A stretch of DNA of 64,000 nt, taken from Nitrospira sp. (GTDB lineage Bacteria; Nitrospirota; Thermodesulfovibrionia; UBA6902). The number at the start of each line of letters is the position of its first letter. The stretch's first letter is position 1. A program made the position numbers and the translations under genes. This document shows positions 53,178 through 55,367 of this stretch, in pieces. Below the pieces are notes generated by a model that was not told the origin of the DNA, made no database searches, and saw only the letters and a list, made by a program, of their open reading frames with translations. Location: positions 8,746 to 72,745 of the forward strand of contig JADHUV010000009.1 in assembly GCA_016784355.1 (NCBI GenBank). The letters run 5' to 3'.

Positions 53178-55367
53178 GTGTATAATCGAATGGTTCGTGT
53201 ACTTTCTTGTATGGCAGTTGTGCTGATACTGGCCGGTTATTTTTCATTCGCTTATGCAGAGTATGTGCCGGGTGAGGTTCTGGTTAAGTACAGGGACGGC
53301 AGCATGATATCTGAGAGTACGCTTTCCGAGGATGCCGGAATACAGCAGAAAAAGGATTTCCGTGCGATCCGGCTGCATCACATGGCGCTTCCGGAAAATA
53401 TGTCAGTGCAAGAGGCAATAGCAATTTATCAGCAGGATCCCAATGTTGAGTATGCAGAGCCCAATTATATTGTTGAAATAAATACTATTCCGGATGATAC
53501 TGATTTTACAGGTTTGTGGGGCATGCACAATGAAGGACAGACTGGGGGAGCAGTAGATGCGGATATTGATGCCCCTGAGGCCTGGGAACTTACTGTCGGA
53601 TCCGAAGATGTCATTGTGGCGGTAGTTGATACAGGGGTGGTTTATACACATCCGGACCTTAGTGCAAATATATGGACGAATTCCGGAGAAACCAGCTGCG
53701 TCGATGGTATTGACAATGATGGTAACGGCTATATTGATGATTGTAATGGCTGGGATTTTGTCGGCAGTGATAATGATCCTACAGACTATAATGGACATGG
53801 CACGCATGTAGCCGGAACTATTGCTGCGGTAGGAAATAATGCAGACGGCGTTAGCGGTGTGATGTGGAGAGCAAAGATTATGCCTCTTAGATTCCTGGGT
53901 GTAAATGGCACAGGCACTACCGCAGATGCTGTATCAGCGATACTTTATGCCTCTGCCAATGGCGCTCATGTTATAAACAATAGCTGGGGCGGCGGTGGAT
54001 ATAGTCAGGCATTGAAGGATGCTATAGATGCATCAGATACGGTGGTGGTATGCGCTGCCGGCAATAGTGGCAGTAATGTTGAGAGCACTCCATTTTATCC
54101 CGCCAGTTACACGAGTTCCAATATTATCTCTGTTGCCGCTACAGACCACAATGATCAATTGGCTGCTTTTTCCAATTATGGCATTACGTCCGTAGATATA
54201 GCCGCCCCCGGCGCTGGTATATACAGCACTGTACCGGTAATTGGCTATGGGGCACCGGTTACTGTTTACAGTCAACAGAGTTTTGAGGGTGCCTCCGGTG
54301 AACTTCCGCTGCTGGGCTGGAACCGGGGCGGAGCAAATTCCTCCTGGTCAGTTACGAGCGGTACCGGTACAGATGGAAGTAACAGCCTTGAGGACAGTCC
54401 CGGGGCTGACTATAGTAACAGCACTGGCTCCTGGGCAGGTTATATGACCCCGATAACCTCGGTGAAGGACAATATATACACTCTAACATTCAGCTGGAAG
54501 GGTGAGCTGGAAAATTATTTTGATTATCTGGATATTAACTATTCTCTGGACGGAAGCTCCTGGGACTGGGTTGATTACCGTACGGGCAGCACCAGTGGAG
54601 ATTTTGAGTCAGACTCCTCTGAGGATCTTACAAGCATTGCGGAGTCTTATGATGAATTTTATTTTGGCTTCGGTATTACTGCTGATAGCTCCGTAACCAG
54701 CGAGGGTGTGAGCATTGATGATATTGAATTAACTAGAACTCCTCTGCGGATTAGCAGTTACGGCTATTCAAGTTATAACGGGACATCCATGGCCGCTCCT
54801 CATGTGGCCGGGGTTGCAGGGCTTGTCAAGGCGCTGCATCCGGAATTTTCCAATCTGCAGATTCGGAGTGCGATAATAAACAGCGTAGATGTAAAAGCGG
54901 ATCTGGTGGGAAGTATCGCAACCGGAGGCAGACTGAATGCCTATGGGGCCCTTGTTGAAACGAATATCGATGTTATCAGTGATGGCAGCGGTGACAGTGA
55001 AACTGTTGTAGTGCCGGGAAGCAACTCAGGTATAGTTGAGGCAGCAGCCGGCGGTGGCGGCGGCGGTGGCGGCTGTTTTATCGCAACTGCGGCATACGGA
55101 AGTTTTATGCACCCGTATGTCAGGGATCTCAGAGAGTTCAGGGATGATTATTTATTGAGCAATTATCCGGGCAGGCTTTTTGTATATATGTATTACAAGT
55201 ACTCACCGCCTGTAGCGAATATTATAAAAGACAGCGAAGGCCTGCGGTTTGCATCAAGGATATTGCTGGCTCCAGTTGTTGCAGCAGTTACGATGCCTTA
55301 CCATGTACTGACATTAATGCTTGCAGGGGGTTTCATCTATATGCTCCGCCGCCGCAGAGTCCGGTAG
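53178..55367 (+). CDS. secreted subtilisin-like serine protease (S8) with inserted domain and Gly-run / [10 protein letters not shown] / TM / RRRR C-terminal tail
   Basis: signal peptide; catalytic D (VAVVDTGV), H (HGTHVAGT), S ([11 protein letters not shown]); about 170-aa insert between oxyanion Asn and Ser; C-terminal [18 protein letters not shown]...TM...RRRRVR. Confidence 0.85.
   Translation: [729 protein letters not shown]

Follow-up and report, generated by a model that had tools for sequence, protein, structure and literature searches.

What does the C-terminal tail of an exported subtilase do: is it a signal that is read by a dedicated enzyme, or simply an anchor? The question is raised by a gene at 53178..55367 (+) of a 64-kb stretch of DNA from Nitrospira sp. 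(assembly GCA_016784355.1, contig JADHUV010000009.1, positions 8,746 to 72,745 of the forward strand), which is called the window below. In the list of open reading frames (ORFs) of the window this gene has a GTG start and encodes a 729-aa precursor of an S8 (subtilisin-family) serine protease with a CFI-box-CTERM tail. A sequence-only reading of the locus had described the end of the protein as a run of eight glycines, a ten-residue block, a conserved stretch, a transmembrane helix and RRRRVR, and had proposed that these elements form a dedicated sorting or anchor signal. The layout reads as described, and alignments confirm that the block is near-invariant. The tail almost certainly belongs to the CFI-box-CTERM family, because the NCBIfam model of that name, NF041770, matches aa 633-701 from end to end (profile 1-69/69; 92.6 bits, E = 9e-27), relative to a curated cutoff of 40 bits. 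This match is far beyond chance.

Models of C-terminal sorting domains, which the sequence-only reading had suggested as a check, were therefore informative through NF041770, whereas the classical tags stayed below their cutoffs: among the curated HMMs (hidden Markov models) of classical sorting domains only LPxTATN gave a match to the tail, which reached 12.4 bits (cutoff 32, E = 0.15) and fell on the basic end and the membrane helix before it. A scan of the whole protein found no Pfam family matching the tail, which consequently corresponds to no known cell-wall-binding domain, the other identity that had been considered for it. A second NCBIfam model, NF041763, covers 14 residues and bears the name "CFI-box putative sorting motif-containing protein", so that the idea of a sorting signal is also that of the NCBI curators. 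Full-text searches for the family names or the motif gave no publication on the CFI-box-CTERM domain, and the CFI-box goes unmentioned in the Haft myxosortase preprint, a treatment of sorting tags that contain Cys. The tail is thus nothing out of the ordinary within a family for which NCBI already has models and a provisional label, and NCBIfam-based automated annotation would label it. In all likelihood the module fastens exported proteins to the cell envelope. For the subtilase gene alone the result is routine and its novelty is low; the remaining interest is the mechanism of the family as a whole, named in the database for a "putative sorting motif" and found in more than 30,000 clusters on proteases, adhesins and scaffold proteins.

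Architecture of the tail

From the catalytic domain outwards, the tail begins with the Gly8 linker (aa 625-632, 55050..55073), which stands immediately ahead of an invariant Cys. That residue, Cys633, opens the ten-residue CFI-box motif (aa 633-642, 55074..55103; evident in the sequence, by HMM and in alignments), which is predicted to form a short helix, H1. The motif and the predicted helices after it make up the CFI-box-CTERM homology domain (aa 633-701, 55074..55280). Next comes a hydrophobic membrane segment of 29 residues (aa 695-723, 55260..55346), predicted to be a helix kinked at the conserved Pro707 and with a best 19-aa Kyte-Doolittle window of 1.83. The protein ends in the basic cluster RRRRVR (aa 724-729, 55347..55364), predicted to be cytoplasmic from the positive-inside rule, and a stop codon (55365-55367); all of these features are on the + strand. 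Nothing in this arrangement sets the tail apart from the families of NF041770 and NF041763, with which it shares the Gly run, the ten-residue motif, the helical core, the hydrophobic helix, the basic end and the C-terminal position.

The distance between the Cys and the membrane is a feature to which we return below. Cys633 sits 97 aa from the C-terminus, where 95-131 aa is typical of the family. Counted along the tail, the Cys is residue 9 and the membrane segment spans residues 71-99, which places the Cys ~60 residues upstream of that segment. In the structure model this gap is a confidently predicted, compact and highly conserved helical domain, for which structure searches with the predicted core returned no match. 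A six-frame regular-expression search of the window found no CFI-box other than that of the subtilase.

Size, conservation and passengers of the family

A family profile built from 40 tails and scored against 1.84 billion cluster representatives gave 30,268 clusters (50% identity) at E <= 1e-3 and 23,934 at E <= 1e-10. The motif was present in 147 of the 148 best matches examined. In 145 of these 147 representatives the last (C-proximal) copy of the motif places the Cys 95-131 aa from the C-terminus, at least three Gly precede the Cys in 132, and a hydrophobic helix follows the core in 131. The residues C, F, A, T, A and G of the motif are identical in 40/40 and 62/62 sequences selected by HMM or homology. 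Among 281 non-redundant tails, positions 6-18 are 87-100% conserved, a figure that is partly circular because this set was picked by a motif regular expression; the invariance of the motif was confirmed independently in the HMM- or homology-selected alignments. About 20 further positions are near-invariant in the 281 tails (in tail numbering V24, L27, R28, F30, R31, D32, L35, G41, V45, Y48, Y49, S52, P53, A56, I59, R70, L73, P75 and P83). Positions -3 to -1 before the Cys are 95-96% Gly in exported-type tails, and R/K predominates at the positions of the basic cluster across the family.

The tail is no one-off at the level of the family: it recurs on unrelated secreted passengers, and several genomes have at least two CFI-box loci or tandem pairs (L013, L052, L055; L035/L045; L043/L068). 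The passengers that carry it are of surface or secreted types, mutually unrelated, and include Ig-like repeats, beta-propellers, PKD, fn3, beta-helix, M6 peptidases, RHS and cohesin, with the CFI-box domain almost always C-terminal. A scan of one genome per species gave at least 559 CFI-box loci, and our neighbourhood work covered the best 80 of these at least 559 loci, with 10 kb either side. These 80 include Nitrospirota, Geobacterales, Gammaproteobacteria, Syntrophales, Nitrospinae, WOR-3, Aquificota and Dependentiae, all of them Gram-negative (diderm) lineages, and the cultured Geobacterales among them are Geomonas, Citrifermentans bremense and Pelotalea chapellei. The family itself spans bacteria and archaea.

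One recurrent passenger may be useful for experiments. A protein of ~620 aa is conserved in 23 Geobacterales loci (L060:4888-6750 and 22 others, e.g. L077, L078, L083 and L086), and the representative scanned, that of L060, is a putative HExxH metalloprotease of the MXAN_6640 family (NF045524, 220 bits) that ends in a CFI-box-CTERM tail. In 20 loci a conserved secreted protein of 172 aa is encoded just upstream (e.g. L078:7983-8501). Since Geomonas and Citrifermentans are in culture, the ~620-aa protein is a client that lends itself to experiment. There are also small stand-alone CFI-box proteins (P0074, P0084), whose genomic contexts were uninformative.

From export to a possible sorting step

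How might a protein with such a tail reach its destination? The subtilase has a Sec-type signal peptide at its N-terminus (aa 1-27, 53178..53258, +; read from the sequence, with the cleavage site inferred), the hydrophobic core of which has a Kyte-Doolittle value of ~2.0 across aa 4-27. This peptide would carry the pro-protease across the cytoplasmic membrane via Sec, and the C-terminal hydrophobic helix would halt transfer with RRRRVR on the cytoplasmic side. From the combination of a signal peptide and a C-terminal stop-transfer helix it follows that the enzyme would first be retained at the inner membrane, on its outer face, and we consider this initial anchoring very probable. The Gly8 run would serve as a flexible tether to the compact helical domain next to the membrane, which starts with the invariant Cys.

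The later fate of the protein is a matter on which we are more guarded. By analogy with MYXO-CTERM and JDVT-CTERM, the exported, diderm-type module may be a sorting tag that depends on its Cys. The protein would then be modified and/or cut at or beside the Gly-Gly-Gly-Cys junction by some enzyme, release from the membrane helix would lead to its retention at, or movement to, the outer envelope, and the helical core would probably be a recognition or membrane-interface unit. Such processing is possible, with a likelihood that we would put slightly short of even. It is based on the following resemblance: the tags of MYXO-CTERM and JDVT-CTERM are also C-terminal, have an invariant Cys after a Gly-rich stretch, a membrane helix and an Arg cluster, and are found on many unrelated surface passengers. 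In addition, the adhesins and cohesin scaffold proteins of diderm hosts would be caught in the periplasm if their inner-membrane anchor were permanent.

Internal copies of the domain are rare. Long ORFs that contain one (P0206, P0207, P0208, P0209, P0256 and L023:7346-13375) have an internal CFI-box domain with a membrane helix and a basic cluster, right after which come an apparent new signal peptide (of lipoprotein type in P0206) and a second passenger; most of them end in a second CFI-box. What such ORFs represent is either the in-frame fusion of tandem genes or a genuine polyprotein. The order of internal CFI-box, membrane helix, basic cluster and apparent new signal peptide fits an out-to-in orientation of the module.

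Tail interchange in orthologous subtilases

If the tail were a sorting tag, could another tag take its place? The 120 closest homologues of the subtilase share its catalytic domain and insert but differ in their C-terminal ends. Most have CFI-box-CTERM. Ten end instead in polyGly-CSITAG (GGGGCSITAG), after which come a transmembrane helix and KRRKK, and this CSITAG-type tail scores 24.3 bits against JDVT-CTERM, below the cutoff of 27. One further homologue (P0143) has polyGly-CFVQTAA and then directly a membrane helix and basic residues, and three have polyGly-CFI(G/S)T plus ~15 residues. The CSITAG-type loci L101-L103 are positional orthologues, with the same addA...rsmA-S8...mnmG synteny as in the window. 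A JDVT-like tail is thus interchangeable with the CFI-box tail in orthologous subtilases, and this apparent exchange with a Cys tag resembling those of JDVT/MYXO-CTERM supports a sorting role.

A further difference between these loci concerns the next gene. In the three loci with the JDVT-like tail a 675-aa membrane protein with PAP2 and PMT_2 (GT-C type) domains is encoded between S8 and mnmG (L101:10273-12300, L102:10270-12309 and L103:7373-9412), and its gene begins two bases past the S8 stop codon. It is absent from the window (compare 55368-55521) and from L067, and is reduced to a 181-aa PAP2 ORF in L010. This protein may be a dedicated modifying enzyme for the JDVT-like type of tail.

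A putative TraB-like barrel beside or fused to the tail

In some lineages the CFI-box tail has a putative partner. A protein of ~287 aa with a signal peptide and a C-terminus like that of outer-membrane proteins is encoded directly downstream of the CFI-box tail, overlaps it or is fused to it in frame, in 11/11 loci in which it was found (these include L062:1836-2696, L021:1546-2406, L057:1544-2419, L094-L098, L099:3204-4067 and L100:3962-4816). Four passengers of such tails were compared by BLAST and showed no similarity to one another. Among NCBIfam models, the 287-aa protein matched best, in 12/12 sequences, the N-terminal half of the one named "outer membrane exchange protein TraB", at E values of 1e-4 to 7e-11 and over profile positions ~5-292 in 11 of the 12, with scores far below the model cutoff. 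There was one weak match to PorV/PorQ (E = 0.003). No Pfam family was found for the protein, a PDB sequence search with its profile gave no match, and a word-indexed search for homologues returned close relatives only.

TraA, the prototype client of MYXO-CTERM, has TraB as its partner in the operon. Guo, Haft and Wall describe MXAN_5598 as a fusion of an adhesin, MYXO-CTERM and a beta-barrel (PMC11980579), a layout like that of the fused CFI-box proteins. A TraB-like barrel as partner or fusion is therefore a further likeness to MYXO-CTERM, and by analogy the putative barrel and its CFI-box gene may form a TraAB-like cassette in which the CFI-box replaces MYXO-CTERM. The C-terminal domain of type IX secretion (PorV/PorU) is similar in that it is a folded C-terminal sorting domain of ~70-100 aa that is paired with an outer-membrane barrel. 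However, that domain is a beta-sandwich without a membrane helix, whereas the CFI-box core is helical and has one, and the CFI-box lineages here are not Bacteroidota.

In an Omnitrophota metagenome-assembled genome (MAG) the CFI-box client beside the TraB-like barrel is a cohesin-domain protein of ~1000 aa (L100:981-3983), and the gene that precedes it (L100:368-907) has a weak match to a dockerin domain. These genes hint at a cohesin-dockerin assembly anchored via a CFI-box tail.

Sorting tag or permanent anchor?

Did the idea of a dedicated sorting signal, then, hold true? A dedicated C-terminal module is indeed present, as the NF041770 match indicates, but no enzyme that would act on it was found in the window or near the 80 loci and there are members that are not exported. 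The observations gathered in this section weigh against a simple sorting signal, and they bear in different ways on three alternatives.

The sequence-only reading had also drawn a parallel to PEP-CTERM, LPXTG and GlyGly-CTERM. The part of this parallel that stands is the membrane helix with a basic cluster at the very C-terminus, common to LPXTG, PEP-CTERM, GlyGly-CTERM and MYXO/JDVT-CTERM. In all of these the motif lies within ~10 aa of the membrane helix (~5-10 residues between Cys and membrane segment for MYXO/JDVT-CTERM), whereas in the CFI-box a folded, conserved helical domain of ~60 residues intervenes, unlike in every characterised tripartite tag. Moreover, the sequence of the membrane helix is variable in the family except for L, P, V and P at its start (281 tails), and a helix that is not conserved argues against sequence-specific recognition by an intramembrane protease. 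The CFI-box also differs from MYXO/JDVT-CTERM in having no significant HMM match to them, no CPBP protease linked to it by neighbourhood, and cytoplasmic members. The lipobox of lipoproteins (Lgt/LspA) is comparable in its invariant Cys after small residues and beside a membrane helix. Yet it is N-terminal and of opposite topology, and the GGG-C of the CFI-box, with its Cys far from the helix, is unlike L-[AS]-[GA]-C.

Where, then, is the enzyme? The statement that the window contains no exosortase, sortase or rhombosortase was borne out: no sortase, exosortase, rhomboid or CPBP protease family was among the Pfam assignments of its genes, and a crude motif scan for CPBP found nothing convincing in the window or the 80 loci. 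All-against-all clustering of the 3,786 ORFs of those loci revealed no shared neighbour enzyme, only Geobacterales synteny. The polytopic membrane proteins encoded within 4 kb of the CFI-box genes were all different, and no M48 or CPBP-like ORF lay within 10 kb either side.

Two M48 genes were nevertheless seen near CFI-box genes. In the window a Ste24-like gene of the CAAX-protease type (Peptidase_M48_N + M48; 62197-63456, +) lies downstream of the subtilase at a distance of ~7 kb. The other, which encodes a membrane M48 metalloprotease (L111:2036-2761), stands 57 nt upstream of a CFI-box gene on a plasmid of Burkholderia savannae. Homologues of both are absent from the 80 neighbourhoods, and for this reason we regard the association of M48 with the CFI-box as anecdotal. 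The sequence C-F-I-A does formally fit a CaaX pattern; we note this but set a CaaX reading aside, as the motif does not stand at the C-terminus and no link to proteases of the CAAX type emerged.

A second body of evidence comes from members that are not exported. RefSeq already annotates proteins on plasmids of cultured organisms as CFI-box-CTERM, and several plasmid and haloarchaeal members lack signal peptide and membrane helix alike and still keep the invariant Cys. Members without a signal peptide, and usually without a membrane helix, include those at L108:1333-2184, L109:3653-4234, L110:3218-4252, L111:2818-3228 and L116:2770-3357. Examples are a TPR-like protein on 5-kb plasmids of Acinetobacter lwoffii, proteins of Burkholderia with a cold-shock domain and a zinc ribbon, and a fusion to an Mrr-like nuclease on Haloquadratum walsbyi PL47. 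In a tail-anchored protein of Haladaptatus (L116) the core is followed by RRRR and then by the membrane helix, an order that puts the core on the cytoplasmic side. In cytoplasmic members a basic amphipathic helix closes the core. The non-exported members conserve Cys and core, but the Gly run is missing and a residue other than Gly precedes the Cys. Judging from these sequences, only the exported class has added a Gly run, a stop-transfer helix and a basic end. That Cys and core are kept in members that lack the Gly run or the membrane helix implies that the helical core does something by itself, for example associating with membranes or with other copies of itself.

In one alternative there is no sorting step at all. 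The module would remain uncleaved and the protease would stay on the periplasmic face of the cytoplasmic membrane. The core would then be a domain for oligomerisation or for the membrane interface, and the Cys would matter for the fold alone. Such a permanent anchor would require no enzyme, and none was found in the neighbourhoods. It also accords with the predicted continuity of the compact helical domain with the membrane helix, with the conservation of the entire domain rather than the motif alone, with the occurrence of the same core next to the membrane from the cytoplasmic side (L116) or ending in a basic amphipathic helix in cytoplasmic proteins, and with the presence of the family in both bacteria and archaea. 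However, a permanent anchor leaves unexplained the near-invariant Gly-Gly-Gly-Cys of the exported class and the interchange with JDVT/MYXO-like tags in orthologues, and it offers no reason why the giant adhesins, cohesin scaffolds and TraB-linked proteins of diderms should be held in the periplasm. On balance we find this alternative unlikely, if clearly the best of the three.

Could the module instead process itself? By analogy with the G|CF junction of hedgehog proteins and inteins, an N-to-S acyl shift at the residue that precedes the Cys would free or transfer the passenger without a dedicated enzyme. The Cys is invariant in every context, cytoplasmic members included, and conserved polar residues surround it (T13, R28, R31, D32, Y48 and S52 in tail numbering); again, no partner enzyme was found in the neighbourhoods, and bacteria and archaea alike have the family. 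On the other side, there is no conserved His and the analogy is purely chemical. We consider self-processing improbable. Membership in the Hint/hedgehog-intein domains themselves was rejected, since a beta-rich Hint fold would be expected while the model is all-helical and has no structural match.

A C-terminal export signal for a non-Sec route resembling type I secretion, reused beside the Sec signal peptide, is the least likely alternative and very improbable: the plasmid members include proteins of usually extracellular families, RTX-type "calcium-binding" or with a CAP domain, that show no obvious N-terminal signal peptide, but the window protein and most representatives have a Sec-type signal peptide and a stop-transfer helix, domains that are plainly cytoplasmic (cold-shock, Mrr-like nuclease) occur in other members lacking a signal peptide, and an ABC/MFP transporter pair was not noticed as a conserved neighbour in the clustering of the 80 loci.

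To return to the Cys-dependent sorting tag, a more far-reaching view of it would be that CFI-box-CTERM is a very widespread envelope-sorting system that is mechanistically distinct from those of sortase, exosortase, rhombosortase and myxosortase, in which a folded, membrane-adjacent helical domain with an invariant Cys is the recognition or even self-processing unit and in which some lineages hand the passenger to a TraB-like barrel. We offer this as speculation that we consider doubtful. The mechanism of the CFI-box would show by what route a large part of the surface proteins of Nitrospirota, Geobacterales, Omnitrophota and many uncultured lineages reach the envelope or stay there. Starting points are the interchange with JDVT-like tags, the TraB-like partner and the hosts that can be cultivated (Geomonas, Citrifermentans and, for the plasmids, Acinetobacter lwoffii).

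The catalytic domain, its insert and the surroundings of the gene

The remainder of the protein is that of an S8 protease from the Nitrospirota. The identical 729-aa protein was found on seven metagenome contigs, and its closest orthologues, at 50-65% identity, are S8 peptidases of Nitrospirota/Thermodesulfovibrionia MAGs. After the signal peptide there is an N-terminal prodomain of the fervidolysin type (aa 27-96, 53256..53465, +; Pfam PF22148, E = 1e-15, 58.4 bits). The S8 catalytic domain (53604..54968, +) is recognizable by the motifs VVDTGV, HGTHVAG, AAGNSG and GTSMAAPH, and has the triad in order together with the oxyanion Asn (D151, H207, N296 and S537). In the Pfam scan of the whole protein Peptidase_S8 (PF00082) matched with E = 3e-59 in two stretches, the best at aa 143-363, and the domain is interrupted by an insert.

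An insert of about 170 aa in the catalytic domain had been noted from the sequence alone, and we place it at aa ~353-529 (~175 aa; 54234..54764, +), between the oxyanion Asn296 and Ser537 and just ahead of GTSMAAPH. AlphaFold2 models aa 348-534 as an all-beta domain (pLDDT 94.4, pTM 0.88), a jelly roll whose best Foldseek matches in the PDB are CBM61 (2xom), the MAM domain of meprin (7uai/4gwm), CBM16, CBM22, CBM4 and InhA (4yu5), at E ~1e-5 to 1e-4 and TM 0.5-0.6. The Pfam scan of the whole protein assigned no family of its own to this region. The insert is kept throughout the Nitrospirota clade and is, judging from the model, most plausibly a substrate- or glycan-binding module beside the active site. 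Some subtilases carry a domain inserted in the catalytic domain, for example the PA-domain subtilases; these are alike in having a whole domain inserted upstream of the catalytic Ser, whereas the insert here is modelled as a MAM/CBM-like jelly roll rather than a PA domain.

A scan for promoters and terminators around the subtilase gene gave nothing above chance. Genes for multihaem c-type cytochromes are found nearby: one at 57469-58041 (-), two genes downstream of the subtilase, encodes a c554/c7-like protein of 190 aa, and another at 13567-15975 (-) encodes a multihaem + TPR protein of ~800 aa; we saw no evidence in the window of a functional link of either gene to the subtilase. Within the subtilase itself, a small acidic loop bracketed by two Cys lies between the catalytic Asp and His (aa 174-189, window 53697-53744). 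It has sub-threshold matches to the acidic double-disulfide repeat NF033662 (18 bits) and to a metal-binding motif of the MopE type, and is probably a Ca-binding loop stapled by a disulfide.

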